64,000 nt of DNA from positions 5,104-69,103 of the forward strand of contig PEWR01000061.1 in the NCBI GenBank assembly GCA_002779395.1. The letters run 5' to 3'. A program made the position numbers and the translations under genes. This stretch comes from Ignavibacteriales bacterium CG07_land_8_20_14_0_80_59_12. Its GTDB lineage: Bacteria > Bacteroidota > Ignavibacteria > 0-14-0-80-59-12. This document shows, piece after piece, positions 6,992 to 55,248 of the stretch (the first letter of the stretch is position 1; every line of letters starts with the position of its first letter). The notes under the pieces were generated by a model that worked only from the letters and a program-made list of their open reading frames with translations, was not told where the DNA came from and made no database searches.

Positions 6992-7570
6992 CTACCGCAC
7001 GTAGGCTAACTTCTTCACATTGGTGGATGTTCTGCTACTCACCTCAGATTTCGCCACCATACGATAGAAGTAAATCCCGCTGGCAACAGCCTCCGGCTTC
7101 CAATCAACTTTGTGAAAACCAGGTGGCTCAATCCCTTCAACGAGCGTTGCAACTTCTTCTCCAAGCACATTGTAGAGCTTGATGCTCACCTGAGATTCCT
7201 CAGGAAGTGCAAATTCAATCATAGTGCTCGGATTAAATGGATTCGGGTAGTTCTGCTCAAGCCGATACTCAGTAGGAAGCATCTCGCCCGGCTGCTCTGC
7301 TACACCTGTCAACAGATAGCGCTGCACGTGCCAGAAGCCGGCGATCTGCTTATTGGATGCATTGCTCGTTGTGCCGATGAATGGCTGTCCGAGCGTGCCA
7401 ACAAGCTTGTTGTCCCTGGAACTGAGTGAACCTCCTCCACTTCCAAAGACGCTCCGCGGGATGGCATACTGCCCTGATGCACTCTGGCAGAAGAGAAACA
7501 AGAAAACCACAATTCCTGCCGAAAAAATTGTCCCGCTAAAAGAAACGGGATTTTCAAGAAGATGTCTCAT
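6992..7570 (-). CDS. Small secreted protein with a T9SS C-terminal sorting domain (192 aa); cargo function unknown
   Basis: Signal peptide MRHLLENPVSFSGTIFSAGIVVFLFLFCQSASGQ. The last ~85 aa form a type-A Por secretion tail (NYPNPFNPSTMIEFALPEESQVSIKLYNVLGEEVATLV...GIYFYRMVA). GC is about 50% versus about 62% for the window. Confidence 0.8.
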   Translation of the reverse strand: MRHLLENPVSFSGTIFSAGIVVFLFLFCQSASGQYAIPRSVFGSGGGSLSSRDNKLVGTLGQPFIGTTSNASNKQIAGFWHVQRYLLTGVAEQPGEMLPTEYRLEQNYPNPFNPSTMIEFALPEESQVSIKLYNVLGEEVATLVEGIEPPGFHKVDWKPEAVASGIYFYRMVAKSEVSSRTSTNVKKLAYVR

Positions 7571-7583
7571 TTTTTTACCCTCC

Positions 7584-9617
7584 TCACTTTGCCTCTGGCT
7601 TTGCTTGCATCTTCTCTTGCTCAGCTTTCATCTTCTCTTGCTCAGCTTTCATCTTCTCTTGCTCAGCCCTCATCTGCTCCTCCATCTCGTGGTTCTTCTC
7701 ATAGTCTATACCCAACGTCTCTGATACGCCGTATTCCTTTGGATGGATGTACTTCCCTCGCTCCGCACCGGTTTTCTCCACCTCAACTTGAGCGGGATGC
7801 GCTTTAACATACGGGTCGTTACGGATGCCTGTGACCTGCCAGGAGACTCTCACGTTCGGTTTGTCAGTCTTGATTGAGAAGCGGTTGTTGTGAATTTCTT
7901 CACTCACGATTGCCTGAGCAAACTGTCCGATGACCGTTAATTGGTAGCGAAAGTCGCGGTTGAGGGCTTCGAAGTAGTCGGGTAGGGTGACCGTTGCCTC
8001 ACCATTAGCATCAGTAACGACGTTACCATTGTAGATATTCAGCACCTCATCCGACTCCACACAGAAATGGGCCAGGTACTTATTTGCCGGGTCGAGCGGA
8101 TGATCAATTTTGAATGACTTGTAGCCACCGACGTAGAGATGTCCTACGATCACCACATCGCCTTCGAAGTGGCCAGCGGGGGAGCTGCCGCTGCTCCAGC
8201 CATACACGGCGATGCCGGTGGTACTGTAGCCATATACGCCGTAGGGGTTGCCGGAGCCCCACACGCCGCAGTCACTCATGCCAAGGTATCCGAAGTTGCC
8301 GCTACTGCTGTAGCCATACACGCCATAGTCCGCGCCGTCGCCATACACGCCGTAGGTGCCGTGTCCATACACGCCGTAGCTTTGGCCGCCAAGGTATCCA
8401 TAGCGACCGCTCCCGTCGTTGCAGCCATACACGCCATACTCCCCGGCCTTGCCATACACGCCAGTGCTCCTGAAGCTCGTACCTCTGCCATAGACGCCGT
8501 AGCCGCTGTTGCTTTCGCCATACACGCCGTTGCCGCTGTTGTTGTAGCCATGCACGCCGTCGTTGCTGGTGCTTTCGCCATAGACGCCGTAGCCGCTGCC
8601 GCTGTAGCCATAGACGCCGTAGCCGCTGTTGCTGTAGCCAAACACGCCATCGTTGCTGTTGCTTTCGCCATACACGCCGTAGCCGCTGCCGCTGTAGCCA
8701 AACACGCCTTCGCCGCTGCTGCCAAGCCATCCGTAGTTGCCGCTGGTGCTGTGTATGCCAGACACGCCGGAGACGTAACCGCCAAGGTATCCGTAGCTGT
8801 CGCTAGTGCTGTTGTAGCCTTTCACGCCGGCGCCGCTGCCGGAATTTGTAGCAAAGATAATTGAATTTGGAGAAGCAGAGCTGCCGCTGAGTGAAAGAGG
8901 AACCCTCACGTTCAACGTCACATCACCAGTCGTTCCTCCACCGGATAAGCCTGTACCGGCAGTGACCCCAGTGATGTCGCCGCCAGCTCCGCCTGGGGTT
9001 GTGGCAATGGTCAAGGTGTTACCCAACGGGGTGATGCTTACGTTGGACCCTGCCTGCAGCGTGACGTTGTCGTGCAAGCTGTTCAGGCTCTTGACCACCT
9101 CTCCAGAGGCAATCTTGGTGCTGTCCACAGCACCATCGGCAATCTTCGCTGAGGTAACTGCATTGTTGTTAATACTTGGATTTGGATATCTCCCTGTTAA
9201 ATCACCGCCAGCTGTAATACCATTGATGCTGTCTGTGTTTGCAGCACGGAAGCTGTAGCCAGAGCCTGTCAACTGCATTCTCGGCGTAAGTTCCGTACCA
9301 GCTCCAACTGTTACTTCAAGCCAGTACGGCTTGTTAAAGGGCAGGTTTAATGTATCTACGCTCCCTAAGTTCACGCTGAATATCCCTTTGCTGACTGCAA
9401 CTGATTGTACCTCTTGCCATAGCGGCGTACCGCCTGTGGTAACGTCGTAGAGCTTGAAGGTGAGGCTGTAGTTACCATCAGGTACAGCCGTGCCGCTGGC
9501 ATCTGTCAAGATCCCCTGGTAGCTGATCGTCTTGGGAATTTGTGCAAGGCTCAATGGTGCAAGAAGAAGCACCATCAGTGCGATGGACAAGAATGTCCAA
9601 CGTAGAGTTGTGTTCAT
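7584..9617 (-). CDS. Gly/Tyr-rich repeat fibre-like secreted protein (677 aa). It has a signal peptide, an N-terminal beta domain, GYGVYG decapeptide repeats, a conserved C-terminal domain and a heptad coiled-coil tail.
   Basis: AAGGAGG RBS. Signal peptide MNTTLRWTFLSIALMVLLLAPLSLAQ. N-terminal domain ISYQGILTDASGTAVPDGNYSLTFKLYD. Central region has ~15 copies of the GYGVYG core across residues ~260-470, of which 8 are regular 30-bp units. C-terminal domain KSFKIDHPLDPANKYLAHFCVESDEVLNIYNGNVVTDANGEATVTLPDYFEALNRDFRYQLTVIG. Tail MRAEQEKMKAEQEKMKAEQEKMQAKPEAK. There is no T9SS C-terminal domain. Confidence 0.85.
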   Translation of the reverse strand: MNTTLRWTFLSIALMVLLLAPLSLAQIPKTISYQGILTDASGTAVPDGNYSLTFKLYDVTTGGTPLWQEVQSVAVSKGIFSVNLGSVDTLNLPFNKPYWLEVTVGAGTELTPRMQLTGSGYSFRAANTDSINGITAGGDLTGRYPNPSINNNAVTSAKIADGAVDSTKIASGEVVKSLNSLHDNVTLQAGSNVSITPLGNTLTIATTPGGAGGDITGVTAGTGLSGGGTTGDVTLNVRVPLSLSGSSASPNSIIFATNSGSGAGVKGYNSTSDSYGYLGGYVSGVSGIHSTSGNYGWLGSSGEGVFGYSGSGYGVYGESNSNDGVFGYSNSGYGVYGYSGSGYGVYGESTSNDGVHGYNNSGNGVYGESNSGYGVYGRGTSFRSTGVYGKAGEYGVYGCNDGSGRYGYLGGQSYGVYGHGTYGVYGDGADYGVYGYSSSGNFGYLGMSDCGVWGSGNPYGVYGYSTTGIAVYGWSSGSSPAGHFEGDVVIVGHLYVGGYKSFKIDHPLDPANKYLAHFCVESDEVLNIYNGNVVTDANGEATVTLPDYFEALNRDFRYQLTVIGQFAQAIVSEEIHNNRFSIKTDKPNVRVSWQVTGIRNDPYVKAHPAQVEVEKTGAERGKYIHPKEYGVSETLGIDYEKNHEMEEQMRAEQEKMKAEQEKMKAEQEKMQAKPEAK
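7603..7686. repeat. 21-bp tandem repeat, about 3.5 copies, encoding AEQEKMK heptads at the C-terminus of the fibre protein
   Basis: gcttgcatcttctcttgctca / gctttcatcttctcttgctca (twice) / a degenerate 4th unit. The period of 21 bp equals 7 aa. Confidence 0.8.
8482..8751. repeat. 30-bp imperfect tandem repeat, 8 regular units from 8512 with a degenerate copy upstream, encoding (S/N)SGYGVYGES decapeptides inside the fibre gene
   Basis: Units such as GCCATAGACGCCGTAGCCGCTGTTGCTTTC recur with 2-6 substitutions each. Antisense ORFs in the track (8139..8864, 8276..8785, 8302..8730) are artefacts of this repeat. Confidence 0.8.
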
Positions 9618-9868
9618 GGTACTACCTCCTTGTTTTGTTTGTTATGATGGTTTGTTTCCTAACGTGCAAAAGACGTTGGGCTGTTGACTGTCCCGCTGAA
9701 AAGAACGGGATTTTTCAATCTGTGCACATCTATGTTTACCCCTTTCCTTGTAGGAGAGGGTAGGGTGAGGTCATGAAATGCCTGGCTCATTGCTGCAACT
9801 GTTTCCTTCTGCATCCGCTTATTTACTGTTATATATAGTAGGAATTTGCTTCAGCTGCAAAAGATAAT

Positions 9869-10430
9869 CTAGAAGTCCGGCCGAAAACCCGCATGTCGAC
9901 GGGAGTGTGGCATGAAGCTTGCGCCATTTCTTGAGCACACGTGATCTCGGAAGAAAAACAGGCGAATCCATGTTCAACCGGCGTGACGCTCAAGAGTCTC
10001 TTCTCAATTCTGACAGTCAGTTTCTCAAAACTGTGGGTCGAGACACGTTCTATGGATTTCTCTCTGAGCATCGGCACGGGATCTTCCGTGACGACGACTT
10101 CGGATTTCTCTACTGCCGGAACAACGGCCGCCCGTCGGTCCCGCCGAGCATCTTAGCTCTCTCACTTCTCCTGCAGATCTACAACAAGGTCTCGGACGAC
10201 GAGGCGGCGCGCCGTGCCCACTTCGATCTCCAGTGGCAGGTCGCGCTCGGGATCCCCGTCGGTTCGCAAACGTTCGTCAAGAGCACGTTGCAGATGTTCC
10301 CTTCGCAACTCATTCTCCATGAGACAGCGCGCGACATTTTCATGAAGTCGATTGGCAACCACCTAACTGTCCGGAAGGCTGTGACACGGTACAACGCCGA
10401 GAATGCTCTCCGCCTCACCGATCAGGCTGT
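9869..10430 (+). mobile_element. Truncated IS5/IS1182-family element (copy 2): left end plus the N-terminal ~150 codons of the transposase. The 3' boundary is approximate.
   Basis: The first 130 bp duplicate 6788..6917. The encoded N-terminus contains the InsH-type DUF772 motif FLYCRNNGRPSVPPSILALSLLLQIYNKVSDDEAARRAHFDLQWQVALGI. There is no DDE catalytic region. The ORF runs into the oppositely oriented gene at 10435. Confidence 0.6.
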
Positions 10431-10506
10431 TCTGTCATTTCACCAAGGTCATCTTCTGAATCTTCGAGAACGACCCTCCCGTTATCTGATAGAAGTAGAG
10501 ACCTGA
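9970..10506 (+). pseudogene. Transposase N-terminal fragment (IS5/IS1182 family), truncated
   Basis: The true start is most likely MFNRRDAQESLL at 9970; the track ORF 9919..10506 starts at an upstream in-frame codon. Only ~150-180 aa of the expected ~450 are present, and the tail is probably read-through into antisense of the neighbouring gene. Confidence 0.55.
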
Positions 10507-10740
10507 GGAAAACCCTGAGGCGTCGAACAGAACCGCATGCATCCCGGGCGAGAGCGTCTCATCCACCAGCTTGGTGATTTCCCGGCCCATCGAGTCGAAA
10601 ACCCTCAGCACGACGTGTTCTGACTGTGGCAATTCAAAGCTTATCATGGTGTTTGGATTGAAGGGATTTGGAGAGAGGTGAAGCTTGCCCCTGTTGCGCC
10701 CGAATCGGATGTACGGCAATGGCGGCAAAACAGAAGGCAA
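10435..10740 (-). pseudogene. Orphan T9SS C-terminal sorting domain, a remnant of a decayed secreted-protein gene
   Basis: The track ORF begins at a TTG. Only the last ~80 aa are domain-like (SPNPFNPNTMISFELPQSEHVVLRVFDSMGREITKLVDETLSPGMHAVLFDASGFSSGLYFYQI). An ATG-initiated signal-peptide ORF (MRILSGIAVAFCFAAIAV...) lies in another frame at 10723-10765. The upstream PQQ gene is in the third frame. Confidence 0.5.
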
Positions 10741-10787
10741 CCGCGATACCGGACAAGATTCTCATTGTTTCCCCCTTTCTTGTTTGT

Positions 10788-12041
10788 TCATTTGATCGCG
10801 TATACGTGGTGACCGGGATTGTTGGAGCTCACATATATTCTCCCGTTACCGCTGATTGCCGGCGGAGAATCGATATTGGGGATCCAACCGCCCAGACCTC
10901 CCGCGAGATACATCTGAAACTTCATCGTGCCATCTGGATTCAGAGCAATGAAGTTGGTTGAATCGGCTGGATTCCCGTATGGTCTGCGAGAGTGAGTGAG
11001 TCCAAAGTAGATTGTCCCATCCACGTCAATGGCTGGTATGCAGTCAGAAAGTGCAGGAAGTGGGTATTTCCACTTCAGTCTGCCTGCGTAGTCGATCGCA
11101 TACAAATCCAAACACGTGATAACATAGATCGTGCCGTCCCATCCGATGATGGGCCCGATGCCCAACCCTGTCCAGGGCACTCCAGGGAGTCGCCACCGCA
11201 GCACGCCCGATTGGTCGAACGAGCATAATTCATCCGCTCCGGCACAGAAGTAGACATTGCCGTCGTTGTCAACTGCAGGCGCCGATGGTACTTTTCTGCA
11301 AGTCAACCTCAAATGACCGCTCGTGTCCACAGCATAAAGCGCGTGGCCACCAGGGACATAGAGTAATGTGCCATCCGGGCTCATCGCCGGTGAGTATTGA
11401 ACGGAGTCACTGTCGGGCTTCCACTTCCAGTGTAGTGTCCCATCCCTTCGGATAGCGTATAGTGAACCTACCGCAAGATAGACTGTTCCCCCATCTTTCG
11501 AGATTACCGGCGAACTGAAGCTCGCATTCCCTACCACAGGGAATCTCCATTTCAGAAAACCACCACGGTCATAAGCAAACAGGTACCGTTGCCAGTTGTC
11601 ATAACCGTCCACGTGCACATTCCCATCAGCAGCGACCAACGCCGAGCCGTCTCCTGCAGTGGATTTGCTCCACTTTAACTGACCATCTGCTCCTATGGCG
11701 AGGAAATCCGGAGAAAAAGAACTGACGCGCACGTAGATTGTCCCGTTTTCATCAATCACCGGGGATGAGAATACCCCACCGCCAGCGAAAAACGTCCACT
11801 CGACTTTCCCCTCTTGCGGACCGCGGTACGGGCTCCTTCCGGTATGCTGCGCATCATGGAGGAACATTGGCCAGGGGGAATTGGCTAACCCCGGCCAGGA
11901 GATCTCATGTTGTTGCTTGGTTAGAAAATGCGCGGTGTCCGGCGGCGCAACTAGTTGGCTGTTCTTCCTACATGACGCGGAGAAGAGAGCGAAGGACAGG
12001 ATGAGAACTGATCCCACAAATGCTGCAAGTGCGCTTCGCAT
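10788..12041 (-). CDS. PQQ-like beta-propeller repeat lipoprotein (BamB-like fold)
   Basis: AGGAGG RBS. Lipoprotein signal LILSFALFSASC. Repeated xDGTIY(V/F) blades recur throughout (DENGTIYV, DGNVHV, DGGTVYLAV, DGTLLYV, DGNVYF, DGTIYV, NGRIYV). GC is about 52%. Confidence 0.8.
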   Translation of the reverse strand: MRSALAAFVGSVLILSFALFSASCRKNSQLVAPPDTAHFLTKQQHEISWPGLANSPWPMFLHDAQHTGRSPYRGPQEGKVEWTFFAGGGVFSSPVIDENGTIYVRVSSFSPDFLAIGADGQLKWSKSTAGDGSALVAADGNVHVDGYDNWQRYLFAYDRGGFLKWRFPVVGNASFSSPVISKDGGTVYLAVGSLYAIRRDGTLHWKWKPDSDSVQYSPAMSPDGTLLYVPGGHALYAVDTSGHLRLTCRKVPSAPAVDNDGNVYFCAGADELCSFDQSGVLRWRLPGVPWTGLGIGPIIGWDGTIYVITCLDLYAIDYAGRLKWKYPLPALSDCIPAIDVDGTIYFGLTHSRRPYGNPADSTNFIALNPDGTMKFQMYLAGGLGGWIPNIDSPPAISGNGRIYVSSNNPGHHVYAIK

Positions 12042-41430: not shown

Positions 41431-42384
41431 ATGAAACAGACGACCTTGAAGCTACGAGACACATGGTTATGCATTGTCGCATCCGTGCTTATCCTTGGTG
41501 CGGCGCTGTCAGGATGCCAGAAGAGCAGCAACCCGGCTCAGCCGACATCAGAAGCATCCGCATCAACAAACCAGGATGCCGCCCTCTCGGTCGCGAGTGC
41601 CGTGAGTGAGAACAACGGCGGTGCGCTTGATCAGATGGGCGATGCGGCCGACCTCTCCTGTGGCCTCAGGATTCGCGGAGATTCCGAGGGGCTCATGTGG
41701 GGACACGGCGTGGGGATGGGAATGGGATTCGGTCATGGGCATGGAATTGTCGACACGACGTACAATCCGGCCACAGCTTGGTGGACGGCAAATCTGACGC
41801 GGACACGAGGCTCGGAAGACGGCAACTACTCTGCGACATTGACTCGAACGTATCAATACCAGTTCCTGGACAAGAATGGTCAGCCGCAGAAATACTGGAA
41901 GGTCACGAACGCGGGCGGAACGGTCGACACAGCCTACAGCATCCACTTCAAGATCATTCGCGGCTCCGGAGAGCACCACACTCCCCGCATATCAGCCCAC
42001 CTCACATCGCTCAGCGGCGACTGGATGGTAACAGGAACGAATACGCGAACCATCACGATAAACGGAACGTATGCCCGCACGGGCGTGGATACCGTCATGA
42101 GACATGATGCGATGAGGACGCTGAGCTATTCACTTGACCTCACTTTCAACAATGTGACAGGCCCGAGGACCGGACGGGAGGAGTTTTCGCGCAAGACGAG
42201 CGGCACGATTACCGGGACATACACTGGACTTGCGACATACACGAAGGGGAATGAGCACTCGGAGCAAACCATCAGCCGCACGATCAATATCACTTTTAGC
42301 GGTAGCGGCCGGGGAGGCATCGACGTGGACAACGACCACTTCCCCTTCGACTCCTCGCTGGGCGATCTTGACGAGAACGATTGA
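41431..42384 (+). CDS. Hypothetical lipoprotein with a His/Met-rich motif (GHGVGMGMGFGHGHG); possible periplasmic metal-binding beta-rich protein
   Basis: The start is placed at ATG 41431 (MKQTTLKLRDTWLCIVASVLILGAALSGCQ lipobox). Thr/Ser/Gly-rich beta-strand-like repeats (TRTYQYQF, TGTNTRTITINGTYARTG, GTITGTYTGLATYTKG). Confidence 0.6.
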   Translation: MKQTTLKLRDTWLCIVASVLILGAALSGCQKSSNPAQPTSEASASTNQDAALSVASAVSENNGGALDQMGDAADLSCGLRIRGDSEGLMWGHGVGMGMGFGHGHGIVDTTYNPATAWWTANLTRTRGSEDGNYSATLTRTYQYQFLDKNGQPQKYWKVTNAGGTVDTAYSIHFKIIRGSGEHHTPRISAHLTSLSGDWMVTGTNTRTITINGTYARTGVDTVMRHDAMRTLSYSLDLTFNNVTGPRTGREEFSRKTSGTITGTYTGLATYTKGNEHSEQTISRTINITFSGSGRGGIDVDNDHFPFDSSLGDLDEND

Positions 42385-42496
42385 CAACTCTTGACTGCCG
42401 GACTGCTTGCCACGGCTATCAATAGACCTTGTTGCGCTCGGTGAGAGACTATGCGCAAGCCGGTGAAAGACGGGGCTAGTGTGCGTCGCTCCGCGT

Positions 42497-42997
42497 CTAT
42501 GCCTTGGGCTTTCGAGGATATCCATACAACTTGGTTGCGCAATCCGGACAGATTCCGTGCGTAGCCTGCCGTCCCCCGCTCTCCTCCAGGTATTTCTCGA
42601 TAGGGAACCACTGACCTTCTTCAGTTCGGTACTTCTTGCAGTTGGCACAAATAGGAAGCAGAGTCTCCAAGTCACGGATACGCTTTTCTTCTGCCTGCTG
42701 ATGCTTGATGATCTTTATGAAGCCAAGAATAAGGAGCACAATACCCATAGCATCCGCGACATTTCCCATCTGAGCAAAAACCGTTTCGAGTGTTTTTGCG
42801 GATAGACCAAGGAGTTCGGGAAGCCGGCTGGACGGATGTTCGACGAGAACGTCGCACAAGCGACCTATGGAGAGAAAACAGACGGCTGGAAGTATTGGCG
42901 CGAGCGAGAAGAACCGATCCCTTTCTCTCCACACAGTGAAGAACCCCCAAAGGAGAAGAAAGAAGGTAAGCAGATCAACCGCAACAACTATGTCCAT
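42497..42997 (-). CDS. Small membrane protein with a C-terminal Cys-rich putative zinc-ribbon/metal-binding domain
   Basis: Two N-terminal TM helices, an amphipathic segment, then LPICANCKKYRTEEGQWFPIEKYLEESGGRQATHGICPDCATKLYG (CxxC...HGICPxC). GC is about 52%. Confidence 0.6.
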   Translation of the reverse strand: MDIVVAVDLLTFFLLLWGFFTVWRERDRFFSLAPILPAVCFLSIGRLCDVLVEHPSSRLPELLGLSAKTLETVFAQMGNVADAMGIVLLILGFIKIIKHQQAEEKRIRDLETLLPICANCKKYRTEEGQWFPIEKYLEESGGRQATHGICPDCATKLYGYPRKPKA

Positions 42998-43067
42998 TTT
43001 TCAACTCCTATCGTGTTCCCATCTTGCCAAGTGAGCTAGGCAGGCAAGGGCGCAAATGTTTCTGCGC

Positions 43068-43253
43068 TCATATACCTGAGACTCGATTGACATCCCCGAC
43101 CGAACCACGAAATGCCAATCTGCCGAACACCGCCTTCTCGTATCGCGTTGCGGGAACCTCCTGACCGGGGAACCGGGACAGCGTCTCAGCAACGGGTACG
43201 AAACCCATCTTGCGGTAGAAGCCGCCGTTGTAACGAGGAATGATTGTCTCAAC
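43068..43253 (-). pseudogene. C-terminal fragment of a GNAT-family acetyltransferase with no start codon
   Basis: The frame opens immediately after a stop and encodes ...IIPRYNGGFYRKMGFVPVAETLSRFPGQ..., where FY.K.GF is a typical GNAT C-terminal strand. It lies directly 3' of tRNA-Arg. Confidence 0.35.
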
Positions 43254-43310
43254 TCAGGTGACGGTACCGTTGATGGGTGTGAGAAGGGGCTCAGAAACTG
43301 GCGAGTTTTG

Positions 43311-43384
43311 TACGCCCGGGGGGATTCGAACCCTCAACCCTCAGCTCCGTAGGCTGATGCTCTATCCAGTTGAGCTACGGGCGC
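43311..43384 (-). tRNA. tRNA-Arg (anticodon ACG)
   Basis: Cloverleaf: GCGCCCG/TA/GCTC-AACTGGATA-GAGC/A/TCAGC-CTACGGA-GCTGA/GGGTT/GAGGG-TTCGAAT-CCCCC/CGGGCGT/A. G1-U72 pair. One A-C mismatch in the T-stem. CCA is not encoded. Confidence 0.9.
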
Positions 43385-43401
43385 ATGACAATCCACTCAG
43401 A

Positions 43402-43430
43402 AATTTAGCAATTCGACAGATCGTTTGCAA
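43402..43430 (-). promoter_or_regulatory. Sigma70-type promoter TTGCAA-N17-TAAATT for tRNA-Arg
   Basis: The -10 box ends 17 nt before the mature tRNA 5' end. Confidence 0.45.
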
Positions 43431-43718
43431 ACTGCCGACGGCGAGACACAAATCACGCGCCCCTCTTGAAACGGTTCACGGTTGGATCCACCTCGAGTAC
43501 TCAGTGGGCCTGAAGAAGAGAATCCTCACATCGGGAGCAAACAGAAATGTCCTCACCTGCTCATCAAGGTAGGGGCTTCTCTCAAAGCCCTCAAGTCTCG
43601 CTGACGATGTGCAGCCTGAGAATTGAAGGGCAAGAGCGAGAATGCAACCAACGAAGAGGGCCCGCGTTGATGCAAGCGAGTTCGGAAGGGATTCCTGCGT
43701 CGAGGGGACGCCGCAGAA

Positions 43719-44984
43719 TTACCGACTCTTCCCTTTCGTGAGGGAAGTCAACTGCAGTTCGATCCGCTTCCCTTCACTCCGGGCCCCGATGATGCGGTAA
43801 TGCGCTTTCGCACGTTCCAGAGCCGCACGCGCAGGAGCTTCTTCGCCGCGCGCAAGGGCAAGCTGTCCGAGCTCCTCGTACGATTCGGCAAGGTTCAGCG
43901 GATTACGATATTCCTCGTTGATGCGGATACTTGTCTGCAGGTAAAGCTCGGCGACATCCAGGTCCCCCATGGCGCGTTGGATGCCCGCCTTCACTTTGTA
44001 AACGTCGGCCATGCCCAGACGGTCGTCAAGCTCACGGAAGACTGAAAGCGCACGGTTGGCAAATGCGACGGCGAGCGGGTAATCTCCCTGCTTCTGGTGA
44101 AGAGCCGACTTGCCGAGGTACGAGAGCCCGATGAGCGGCTTGTACTCAGCGCGAGCCGAGTAGCCAAGGCTCATGTCAAACTGCCCGAGTGCCTCGGTGT
44201 GCTCCCCCTTCGCAAGGTACATCATCGCGTAGTTGTGATGGAGCTCCGCGAGTCTGGTGAGACTCCCGAGCTCTTCGAACCGTGGAAGGACCTGCTGGTA
44301 GAAAATGAGCGCCTCGTCGTGCTTCCCTTGTATGTTCGCCAGGATGCCGAGGTCCATCGTCACGACTGCCGACATCTCGGCTTGCTTCGCCCGCTCGAAC
44401 ATGCTGCGGGCTTTCCGCATGTGCGCGGCGGCCTCCTTCAGGTCACCGCGCTCTGCAAGCGAAATACCGAGGTGGTTCTCCACACGAGCAAGGCCAAGCT
44501 GGTCCTTGGCCCGGGTGAAGTGTTTCGCCGCCTGGTGGAGGTCGGCATGGGCTTGTTCCCACTTCGCCTGCCGGAGAAAGATCTCGGCCCGTCTTGTGAG
44601 CGCCATGCCTGCAGCGCGTGCAAACCGCAGGGAGCTGCCCGCCCTCTCAACAACAAGGTCGGCAAGCCGCTCTGCAGTCGGATAGTCACCGGTCGTCACG
44701 CTGAGCGCGGCTGCCTCGTTTGCGAGGTCGAGGAAACTCTCCTTCGGCAGCGCCCTCTCGCATTCGGTTATCGCGGCCTCGAGATAGAATGATTCATCCC
44801 CTCCGCGCTTCTCGCCCGGAATGCCAGCGGCCTTTCCCAGAAGCTGCTCCTCGGACTCCTGCAGCTTTTCAATATCGGACCGTATTCTCTTCAGGAGCGC
44901 GTCGTCGCAGAACCTGCCCAGAAGGTCCCACAAGGATCCCCCCTTAGCCTCCGGTGAGGAGGCGTCCACTTGCGCCTTTTTCAT
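43719..44984 (-). CDS. Tetratricopeptide-repeat protein
   Basis: Multiple TPR-like helical repeats (alternating A/L/G/Y patterns). No signal peptide. 421 aa. Confidence 0.75.
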   Translation of the reverse strand: MKKAQVDASSPEAKGGSLWDLLGRFCDDALLKRIRSDIEKLQESEEQLLGKAAGIPGEKRGGDESFYLEAAITECERALPKESFLDLANEAAALSVTTGDYPTAERLADLVVERAGSSLRFARAAGMALTRRAEIFLRQAKWEQAHADLHQAAKHFTRAKDQLGLARVENHLGISLAERGDLKEAAAHMRKARSMFERAKQAEMSAVVTMDLGILANIQGKHDEALIFYQQVLPRFEELGSLTRLAELHHNYAMMYLAKGEHTEALGQFDMSLGYSARAEYKPLIGLSYLGKSALHQKQGDYPLAVAFANRALSVFRELDDRLGMADVYKVKAGIQRAMGDLDVAELYLQTSIRINEEYRNPLNLAESYEELGQLALARGEEAPARAALERAKAHYRIIGARSEGKRIELQLTSLTKGKSR

Positions 44985-44998
44985 ATGTCAGGCAGCCC

Positions 44999-45601
44999 TC
45001 AGAACCCGAATCCGTAGCGGGAGAAATGGGGTATTTCTCCATCCTCGCAGACTATCTTTCCTCGAGACCGAGAGACCGTGATGTTGGCGCTCATCGGCTC
45101 CCATGAAGCGGTCGCAGGATCGTACCAGTAAAGATGGACGTTGGCCCCCTCCGGAACCGCCGACAGATCGAGGCCGGTCGTCGTCATGTCGAGAAGCGCT
45201 GGCGTTCGGAACGCCGTCCCCCCGGGTCCGAAGTCCGCTGCAAGCATCTCATCATCAAGCGCAATGCTGAACCATCCGCTCTCGCTGATCGACTGCGGCG
45301 CTATCCGAAGAGACATGTCCGTCCTCACCGTCACAGCACGCCCCTCATCGAGGTATTCCCCATGCACCTTCAGCAGGCCACCAGACAGAGCAGTGATGAA
45401 CTTACTCACTGTGATGTCCTTCGAGAGCGGTCCCCCCCCAGAGCGCGGCAGAAAGATGAGGGTCGGTGTTGGGCTGACTGACCCTGTACCAACCGCAGGA
45501 TTGGCAGGCACACCGACAGGATTATCCAGTGTCGAGCACCCTGCAAGAAGGGTCATCACAGCGACGAGGACGATCCCGAAAATCATGTTCGGGCGCTTCA
45601 T
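44999..45601 (-). CDS. Hypothetical lipoprotein
   Basis: The start is placed at ATG 45601 (MKRPNMIFGIVLVAVMTLLAGCS) with an AGGAAAGGA RBS. The track ORF extends to 45694. It ends in ...GFGF. Confidence 0.6.
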   Translation of the reverse strand: MKRPNMIFGIVLVAVMTLLAGCSTLDNPVGVPANPAVGTGSVSPTPTLIFLPRSGGGPLSKDITVSKFITALSGGLLKVHGEYLDEGRAVTVRTDMSLRIAPQSISESGWFSIALDDEMLAADFGPGGTAFRTPALLDMTTTGLDLSAVPEGANVHLYWYDPATASWEPMSANITVSRSRGKIVCEDGEIPHFSRYGFGF

Positions 45602-46339: not shown

Positions 46340-46822
46340 ATGGCGACGTTCCGCGGCGTTGATTACTACAGTCTCGGCTCCCTCCTCTCTCCCGAAGAAA
46401 TCCTCGTCCGTGATACGATACGCGAATTCGTGGACGACAACGTTCTCCCGATTATTGAGAGGCACTACAGGGAAGGCACATTTCCCCTGGAGCTCGTCCC
46501 GAGGATGGCTGAGCTGGGCCTTCTGGGTGCCACCCTCCCCGGGAAATACGACTGTGCAGAAATGAACAACGTCGCCTGCGGGCTCATCATGCAGGAGCTC
46601 GAACGCGGCGACAGCGGTGTTCGAAGTTTCGCCTCGGTCCAAAGCGCGCTCGAGATCGCCCGCACCGCGCGGGAGATACTCGGTGCGAACGGCATCCTTG
46701 ACGAGTATCCCGTGATGCGGCACATGGCTAACCTGGAATCAGTGAAGACGTATGAGGGAACGCACGAGATGCAGACGCTCATCATCGGCGCCGACATCAC
46801 CGGAATAGAATCGTACCGATAG
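46340..46822 (+). pseudogene. Glutaryl-CoA dehydrogenase-like acyl-CoA dehydrogenase with a ~270-aa in-frame internal deletion (N-terminal ~100 aa fused to C-terminal ~60 aa)
   Basis: The N-terminus ...[52 protein letters not shown]...[25 protein letters not shown] joins directly to the C-terminal helix [54 protein letters not shown]. The whole middle beta domain and the catalytic region are absent. Confidence 0.55.
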
Positions 46823-54057: not shown

Positions 54058-55248
54058 TTGACAGGGTGGACTGCCATGCCTGACGCACACGCTCCTTCCG
54101 GAATCGAATTCTCCTTCACTGACACGATGAAGATGGTTCAATCGCTTGCACGCGACTTCGCTGTCTCGGAGATCAGACCCGTCGTCGTGAAATACGACGA
54201 GTCGCAGGAGTTCCCATTCGACCTCGTGCGTAAGATGGGGGAGCTCGGCTTCATGGGGATCCTGTTCCCGGATGAGTACGGCGGCGCCGGGTTCGGGTAC
54301 CTCGAGTACGTCGTGATCCTTGAGGAGCTTTCGAAGATTGACCCCTCGATCGGGCTCATCGTTGCCGCGCACAACAGCCTCTGTACCAACCACATCTACA
54401 GGTTCGGGAACACGAGCCAGAAAAAGGAGTACTTACCCGGTCTCTGCACCGGCCGAACCGTCGGCGCATGGGCGCTCACGGAGCCCGGGTCGGGAAGCGA
54501 TGCCGGTGCGATGAGGTCAACAGTTCGGCGCGAAGCCGACGCGTTCATACTCAACGGTTCAAAGGCCTTCTGCACAAACGGCTCGGTCGCAGGGACGGCA
54601 GTGGTCATGGCGGTAACCGATCCGTCGAAAGCGAAGAAAGGGATTTCCGCGTTCATCCTTGAGAAGGGTATGCAGGGCTTCTTCCCTTCGAAGAAGGAGA
54701 ACAAGCTCGGCATGCGGGCCTCTGACACATCGAGCCTGACGTTCGACAACGTGCGCATCCCACGGGGGAACCTCCTCGGTGAAGAGGGAAGCGGCTTCCG
54801 CCAGGCCCTCACGATCCTGGACGGCGGCCGCATCAGTATCGCCGCCCTCGCCCTCGGGATCGCGCAGGGGGCGCTCGGCGCAAGCGTGAAGTACTCCCGA
54901 GAGCGCGAACAGTTCGGGAAACCGATCGGCGAGTTCCAGGCCATCCAGTGGAAGCTCGCCGACATGGCAACGGAGATCGAGGCCGCACGGCTCCTCACGC
55001 TGAAAGCGGCGTTCCTCAAGGACCGGGGGAACGAGGTCGTCCTCGAGTCGTCCATGGCGAAGTACTACGCGAGCGAGGCGGCCGCCCGCGCGACATCGGA
55101 GGCTGTTCAGATCCACGGAGGCTACGGCTTCATCAAGGAATTCCCTGTGGAGAAGCTGTACCGCGATGTGAAGCTCACGACCATCGGCGAGGGGACATCG
55201 GAGATACAGAAGCTCATCATCGCACGGGAGCTTCTGAAGACGTTCTGA
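54058..55248 (+). CDS. Acyl-CoA dehydrogenase (short/branched-chain type)
   Basis: GAWALTEPGSGSDAGAM, the YAxE region and the catalytic E in the TTIGEGTSEIQ region near the C-terminus. Confidence 0.9.
   Translation: MTGWTAMPDAHAPSGIEFSFTDTMKMVQSLARDFAVSEIRPVVVKYDESQEFPFDLVRKMGELGFMGILFPDEYGGAGFGYLEYVVILEELSKIDPSIGLIVAAHNSLCTNHIYRFGNTSQKKEYLPGLCTGRTVGAWALTEPGSGSDAGAMRSTVRREADAFILNGSKAFCTNGSVAGTAVVMAVTDPSKAKKGISAFILEKGMQGFFPSKKENKLGMRASDTSSLTFDNVRIPRGNLLGEEGSGFRQALTILDGGRISIAALALGIAQGALGASVKYSREREQFGKPIGEFQAIQWKLADMATEIEAARLLTLKAAFLKDRGNEVVLESSMAKYYASEAAARATSEAVQIHGGYGFIKEFPVEKLYRDVKLTTIGEGTSEIQKLIIARELLKTF

Follow-up and report, generated by a model that had tools for sequence, protein, structure and literature searches.

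On balance, the low-GC segment that adjoins the 3' end of a tRNA-Arg gene in this window (the whole stretch of DNA that was analysed, 64,000 nucleotides) is best read as a deletion scar lying beside an atypical, probably horizontally acquired gene, and we hold this reading with moderate confidence. A preliminary description had taken the segment for the eroded remnant of an integrated element, but there is no evidence that a mobile element ever occupied the site. Rather than a single foreign block, the "islet" consists of one compositionally alien gene together with an unusually long noncoding run in which a gene relic is embedded. The pieces of the locus are listed in Table 1.

Table 1. Pieces of the locus around the 3' end of tRNA-Arg, in window coordinates.
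Feature	Positions	Strand	Remarks
Spacer between the convergent stops of a 317-aa lipoprotein-like gene (+) and the 166-aa gene (-)	42385-42496		GC 58.9%, not low-GC; from the list of open reading frames
Intact 166-aa gene	42497-42997	-	GC 50.5%, GC3 0.54; sole compositionally anomalous piece
70-nt spacer upstream of the 166-aa gene, with its Shine-Dalgarno sequence (AGGAG, about 43005-43009) and presumably its promoter region	42998-43067	-	GC 51.4%
Read-through tail of the GNAT relic, 18 codons and stop	43068-43124	-	Beyond the GNAT-profile match, past the end of full-length relatives
43-codon GNAT 3' relic	43125-43253	-	Exhaustive HMMER scan and family profile
In-frame TGA (43254-43256), then 53-nt spacer up to the tRNA 3' end	43254-43309	-	GC 53.6%; holds the truncation breakpoint
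tRNA-Arg (anticodon ACG), intact	43310-43384	-	ARAGORN; Rfam RF00005, 62 bits
334-nt noncoding stretch between the TPR gene and tRNA-Arg	43385-43718	-	GC 53.6%

Composition of the segment beside tRNA-Arg

The low-GC segment and its tRNA neighbour are both present, as the preliminary description had claimed. The 3' end of the tRNA-Arg gene, whose sequence is the same in a sister strain with no differences, points to lower coordinates, and the segment starts directly at that end, at 43309. Positions 42390-43310 have a GC content of 53.0% against 59.3% for the 64-kb window, a level as low as is reached by just 4.5% of windows of equal length, and the 300-nt minimum (49%) falls on the open reading frame at 42497-42997. 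The dip is not bounded by the tRNA gene, and extends to the noncoding stretch of equally low GC on its upstream side (Table 1).

Taken piece by piece, the segment does not behave as a single compositional unit. Host codon usage applied to the amino-acid sequence of the 166-aa protein predicts a GC content at third codon positions (GC3) of 0.755, whereas its gene has 0.539 (z = -6.5), and the low GC3 is uniform along the whole length of the gene. As a host baseline, 15 neighbouring genes have a GC3 of about 0.74, and the genes of at least 200 aa in the window have 0.742 +- 0.053. The GNAT relic is host-like, with a GC3 of 0.698 (z = -0.84), a value that comes from only 43 codons and lies no more than about 2 standard errors from that of the 166-aa gene. 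Noncoding DNA within the segment has a GC content of 0.51-0.59, and seven of eight other nearby intergenic stretches lie at 0.53-0.59, the remaining one, of 50 nt, at 0.66. The compositional anomaly that had been ascribed to the whole segment was thus borne out for the 166-aa gene but not for the GNAT tail, nor for the noncoding parts, which have ordinary intergenic GC. Together, one low-GC3 gene and a noncoding run of unusual length make up the dip in GC.

The noncoding pieces themselves carried little signal. The spacer between the convergent genes (42385-42496) varies most between strains, its 112 nt differing from contig L016 by 3 mismatches and a 9-nt indel, and holds no copy of the tRNA-Arg 3' end. 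In the spacer upstream of the 166-aa gene (42998-43067), a promoter scan matched no sigma-70-like consensus and the predicted RNA fold was no more stable than shuffled sequences (z = -0.6); scans for promoters and terminators gave nothing notable.

Elsewhere in the window, positions 6992-12041 hold a second, larger cluster of low-GC3 genes. Its members are a Por_Secre_tail protein (GC3 0.54), a 677-aa protein with no Pfam match (0.645), a 195-aa open reading frame with a DUF772 transposase domain at 9919-10506 (0.64) and a PQQ_2 beta-propeller protein (0.58). As a candidate for foreign DNA, this cluster is stronger than the segment beside tRNA-Arg.

A 3' relic of a GNAT gene

The start-less C-terminal fragment of a GNAT acetyltransferase that had been proposed at 43068-43253 turned out to be real over 43 of its codons. 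An in-frame TGA immediately precedes the minus-strand frame, which reads VETIIPRYNGGFYRKMGF...RYEKAVF over the 43-codon relic. When the 61-aa fragment was used as a query, neither Pfam, NCBIfam and PDB nor a word-indexed homologue search yielded any GNAT relative, the sole return of the last being a 41-aa fragment from the same species. An exhaustive HMMER scan of 1.84 billion representative proteins, by contrast to this word-indexed search, gave 15 matches at E<=0.001. The best non-self match, P0108 (169 aa), was obtained at E 2.9e-8 with 63% identity, query residues 1-43 aligning with its residues 126-168, and all eight of the longest matches (128-169 aa) match Pfam GNAT models.

We also searched positions 42950-43450 with a profile of this GNAT subfamily, whose proteins are about 165 aa long. 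Profile positions 120-162 of 164 were matched at 61 bits, and positions 1-119 were not found in any frame of that interval; homology to GNAT proteins is therefore evident, but for this C-terminal part only and not for a complete GNAT fold. The relic residues are 50-64% identical to the C-terminal strand-helix region of the subfamily and keep its invariant IPxYNGGFY motif. The region of GNAT proteins upstream of profile position 120 contains the acetyl-CoA-binding core. The relic begins 53 nt from the 3' end of tRNA-Arg, and its start codon is absent. Since everything before profile position 120 is missing along with the start codon, the fragment, a true 3' relic of a GNAT gene of about 165 aa, cannot be an enzyme. 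In the alignment, the 18 read-through codons and the stop that follow the relic have no counterpart in full-length relatives. A sister strain carries a CGA>TGA change in this tail, which ends the frame four codons earlier and is consistent with a frame that selection has ceased to maintain.

No part of the neighbourhoods of the loci with full-length relatives of the relic recurs in the window, and a gene of the 166-aa family stands beside GNAT relatives in none of 40 metagenome loci; two of the GNAT loci contain, about 4 kb off, a weak match to the C-terminal module of the 166-aa protein. One apparent link, a GNAT gene that lies beside a member of the 166-aa family in L010, was rejected, as it belongs to a different GNAT subfamily and the adjacency is coincidental.

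Some 3 kb from the segment, at 46340-46822 on the plus strand and 157 nt from tRNA-Gln, lies a 160-aa remnant of an acyl-CoA dehydrogenase with host-like GC3 (0.74). The remnant lacks the middle domain: an N-terminal domain covering Pfam positions 1-88 of 113 runs in frame straight into the final ~50 residues of the C-terminal domain. A full-length paralogue is found at 54058-55248.

The 166-aa membrane protein and its Cys/His module

The small Cys-rich membrane protein that the preliminary description had placed at 42497-42997 is encoded by an intact open reading frame on the minus strand, with AGGAG 7 nt upstream of its ATG. The protein has 6 Cys residues, three predicted hydrophobic helices at its N-terminus, a long helix and a C-terminal CxxC...HxxCxxC module, and its AlphaFold2 model has a pLDDT of 81. 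It has 99 full-length homologues that are 41-62% identical to it, the few with source names being Bacteroidota. Residues C117, C120, H147, C150 and C153 are invariant in the family alignments, and the window copy aligns colinearly over its full length with P115, K121 and W130 also invariant.

The module, LLPxCxxCKKxR..G.W..E.Y....HGxCPxC (residues ~110-160, encoded at 42497-42660 on the minus strand), recurs in the related entries P0095-P0099. It forms the C-terminus of PAS and response-regulator proteins, such as P0095, which has a PAS domain, and P0096, which has a receiver domain, and the last ~55 residues of the 166-aa protein are 51-53% identical to the module of these two. Neither the protein nor its module has a match in Pfam, NCBIfam or PDB. 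Comparison of the AlphaFold2 model with PDB, by fold and by sequence, gave no meaningful match, and a literature search with the motif strings gave nothing relevant. The gene encodes a membrane-anchored protein whose C-terminal module probably binds zinc. More tentatively, the family may be an undescribed one whose C-terminal module, LLPxCxxCKKxR..W..IE.Y...THGxCPxC, is a new zinc-binding signalling module, with the window copy perhaps a xenologue that has outlived DNA lost beside tRNA-Arg; we regard this proposal, taken as a whole, as possible though somewhat doubtful.

To place the low GC3 of the gene, homologues in eight other contigs were compared with their own neighbours. Their GC3 is near that of the neighbouring genes, differing by less than 1 sd in six contigs and falling about 1.4 sd short in the other two, and the two closest non-self homologues (62% identical) come from contigs of 57% GC in which the gene has a GC3 of 0.745. 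The family therefore has no intrinsic tendency towards low GC3. Since the GC3 of the window copy lies so far below that of the host, horizontal acquisition from a lower-GC relative is the most likely explanation, the gene being not yet ameliorated; a cause other than transfer could also produce such a value. No donor lineage can be named, because the nearest non-self homologue is only 62% identical and the bootstrap of a neighbour-joining tree did not settle the placement of the protein.

In other genomes, homologues of the 166-aa gene lie in unrelated contexts. The two closest non-self relatives (L066 781-1735 and L068 1936-2873) have the family gene convergent with a DUF302 gene, a microsynteny that is absent from the window. 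Of the eight other homologue contexts examined, just one also adjoins a tRNA: in L009 (5603-6513) a same-strand tRNA-Arg(CCT) precedes a 55%-identical homologue by 325 nt, probably by coincidence.

Origin of the segment and comparison with known systems

We compared six contigs with an identical 166-aa protein (35 blocks list it in the index) together with a subpopulation of ~98.5% nucleotide identity. One layout is common to all sampled strains: the TPR gene, tRNA-Arg, the GNAT tail, the 166-aa gene, and the convergent lipoprotein and cytochrome genes. The islet is 98.4-98.6% identical between strains and its flanks 98.5%; islet and flanks have thus diverged equally, and the arrangement therefore predates the split between these subpopulations. 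Against L016, the ~200-aa gene upstream of the TPR gene, at 44999-45601 (minus strand), shows only 91.6% nucleotide identity and a 3-nt indel, where its neighbours show 98-99%.

A scan of a genome collection with the TPR protein found no close relative. The next relatives found have TPR orthologues at 56% and 48% identity, have lost synteny and have no tRNA downstream; they keep only the pair formed by a 205-aa gene and the TPR gene, followed by a GAF-domain gene. A conserved pair of the ~200-aa lipoprotein-like gene and the TPR gene occupies 43719-45601 (minus strand) in the window and 7369-9266 in L015, where the two genes show 42% and 56% identity, respectively. In both L015 and L018 the GAF-domain gene comes directly after the TPR gene and overlaps its stop codon, and in its place the window has tRNA-Arg and a noncoding stretch of 334 nt (43385-43718), in which no remnant of the GAF gene was found.

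We propose that a deletion or rearrangement, with one endpoint ~53 nt past the 3' end of tRNA-Arg, cut a resident GNAT gene. The event would have stripped the gene of its promoter and of about 120 codons out of ~165, leaving 43 codons as a dead relic. Beside this relic would stand a small gene, intact and with a ribosome-binding site of its own, whose probable horizontal acquisition came earlier, and the remainder of the segment would be ordinary intergenic DNA. Deletion as the mechanism of the truncation is what we infer, and the acyl-CoA dehydrogenase remnant 3 kb away indicates that deletional decay is active in this region. A breakpoint that hugs the 3' end of a tRNA gene is also what a lost tRNA-integrated element could leave behind. 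The deleted DNA may have included such an element, which would explain why the breakpoint lies near the tRNA.

The reading of the preliminary description goes further than this, in that the segment itself would be the remnant of a tyrosine-integrase element (a genomic island or prophage) in the 3' end of tRNA-Arg. Its integrase, most of its cargo and its distal att repeat would later have been deleted, and the 5'-truncated GNAT gene and the 166-aa gene would be the last surviving cargo. It accounts for the position of the segment, which begins right after the tRNA 3' end, for the truncation of the GNAT gene at the end that faces the tRNA, at a distance of 53 nt, for the strongly atypical GC3 of the intact gene, and for the unrelated contexts in which homologues of that gene occur elsewhere. 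However, no direct repeat of the tRNA 3' end was detected. No copy within 3 mismatches in 20 nt occurs anywhere in the 64 kb, the best blastn-short match is one of 16 nt (E 0.38) located 40 kb away, within 42300-43250 the top-scoring local alignment (7.5) falls below the shuffle mean (8.2), and an Rfam covariance search of 42200-43900 found just tRNA-Arg, with no tRNA fragment and no other RNA family. The attR-like repeat that an insertion of this kind had led the preliminary description to expect is thus not there, while its remark that no integrase remains was correct: domains of integrases or other mobility proteins (Pfam) are lacking from the called genes within 10 kb, and integrase domains are lacking from the other large open reading frames of the window that were scanned. 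The sole mobility-like frame in the scanned set is the DUF772 transposase-domain fragment at 9.9 kb, 32 kb away.

The GNAT subfamily was not found in the IMG/VR viral contigs or PLSDB plasmids searched. The 166-aa family was not found in PLSDB, nor at full length in IMG/VR, where its C-terminal module alone occurs, in three contigs. A tRNA lies near full-length GNAT relatives in none of the 40 metagenome loci, within up to 6 kb (many of these contigs being short), and the long locus of one GNAT relative, L041, is an ordinary chromosomal context. Moreover, the codon composition of the GNAT tail is host-like, which leaves the two supposed cargo genes without a shared origin and argues against their having arrived jointly. 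What stands of the earlier reading is a gene truncated beside a tRNA and an intact alien gene, but not an att repeat, a nearby mobility gene or a single compositional unit. We consider an eroded integrated element unlikely.

Still less probable, in our judgement, is that everything in the segment is native, nothing having been acquired. The low GC3 of the 166-aa gene would then be specific to that gene, through weak expression, relaxed codon selection or mRNA-level constraints, for example, and the GNAT gene would have decayed in place. Such a view gains from the wide occurrence of the 166-aa family in contigs, its few named sources being Bacteroidota, from the fixation of the layout in every sampled strain, and from the low GC3 of other genes in the window; the TPR gene, which is clearly native, also has a best non-self identity (56%) comparable to that of the 166-aa protein (62%). 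It conflicts, however, with the near-neighbour GC3 of the homologues in eight other contigs, two of them of similar GC, and with the size of the deviation in the window copy, which was calculated with the amino-acid sequence controlled for.

With a deletion scar beside a probably acquired gene as the preferred reading, the segment is an ordinary case of known processes, a pseudogene relic and a compositionally atypical gene, and an instance of routine gene decay. One atypical gene and a long noncoding stretch with a relic suffice to produce a GC dip beside a tRNA gene, so that such a dip alone does not indicate an integrated element; before an island is called, each piece should be tested for its composition, third codon positions included. 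Only the unannotated 166-aa membrane family with its conserved Cys/His module is mildly new, and it may merit a domain description.

In tRNA-linked islands and cryptic prophages, integrase-mediated insertion takes place at the 3' end of a tRNA gene, e.g. argW and leuX in enterobacteria. The segment resembles these in lying directly downstream of a tRNA-Arg 3' end and in containing an atypical gene and a truncated one. It differs from them in its length of only 0.9 kb, in the host-like composition of its truncated gene, and in lacking an att direct repeat, mobility genes and any integrase, intact or relic. A closer parallel is the concept, reportedly put forward by Mira, Ochman and Moran in 2001, of pseudogene relics left by deletional bias in bacterial genomes. 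The GNAT fragment shares with such relics a start-less 3' remnant, here 26% of the gene, whose frame reads on beyond the end of its relatives, an extra premature stop in one strain, and a second, internally deleted gene 3 kb away. There is no substantive difference from these pseudogenes, the sole oddity being the breakpoint 53 nt from a tRNA gene. Within the GNAT superfamily (Pfam Acetyltransf_1/7/10), the relic aligns to the C-terminal region of the ~165-aa subfamily, and the fragment by itself matches no Pfam model. Finally, the module of the 166-aa protein is the one found in PAS and response-regulator proteins, but whereas it is attached there to a cytoplasmic sensor or receiver domain, it sits here on a three-helix membrane anchor.
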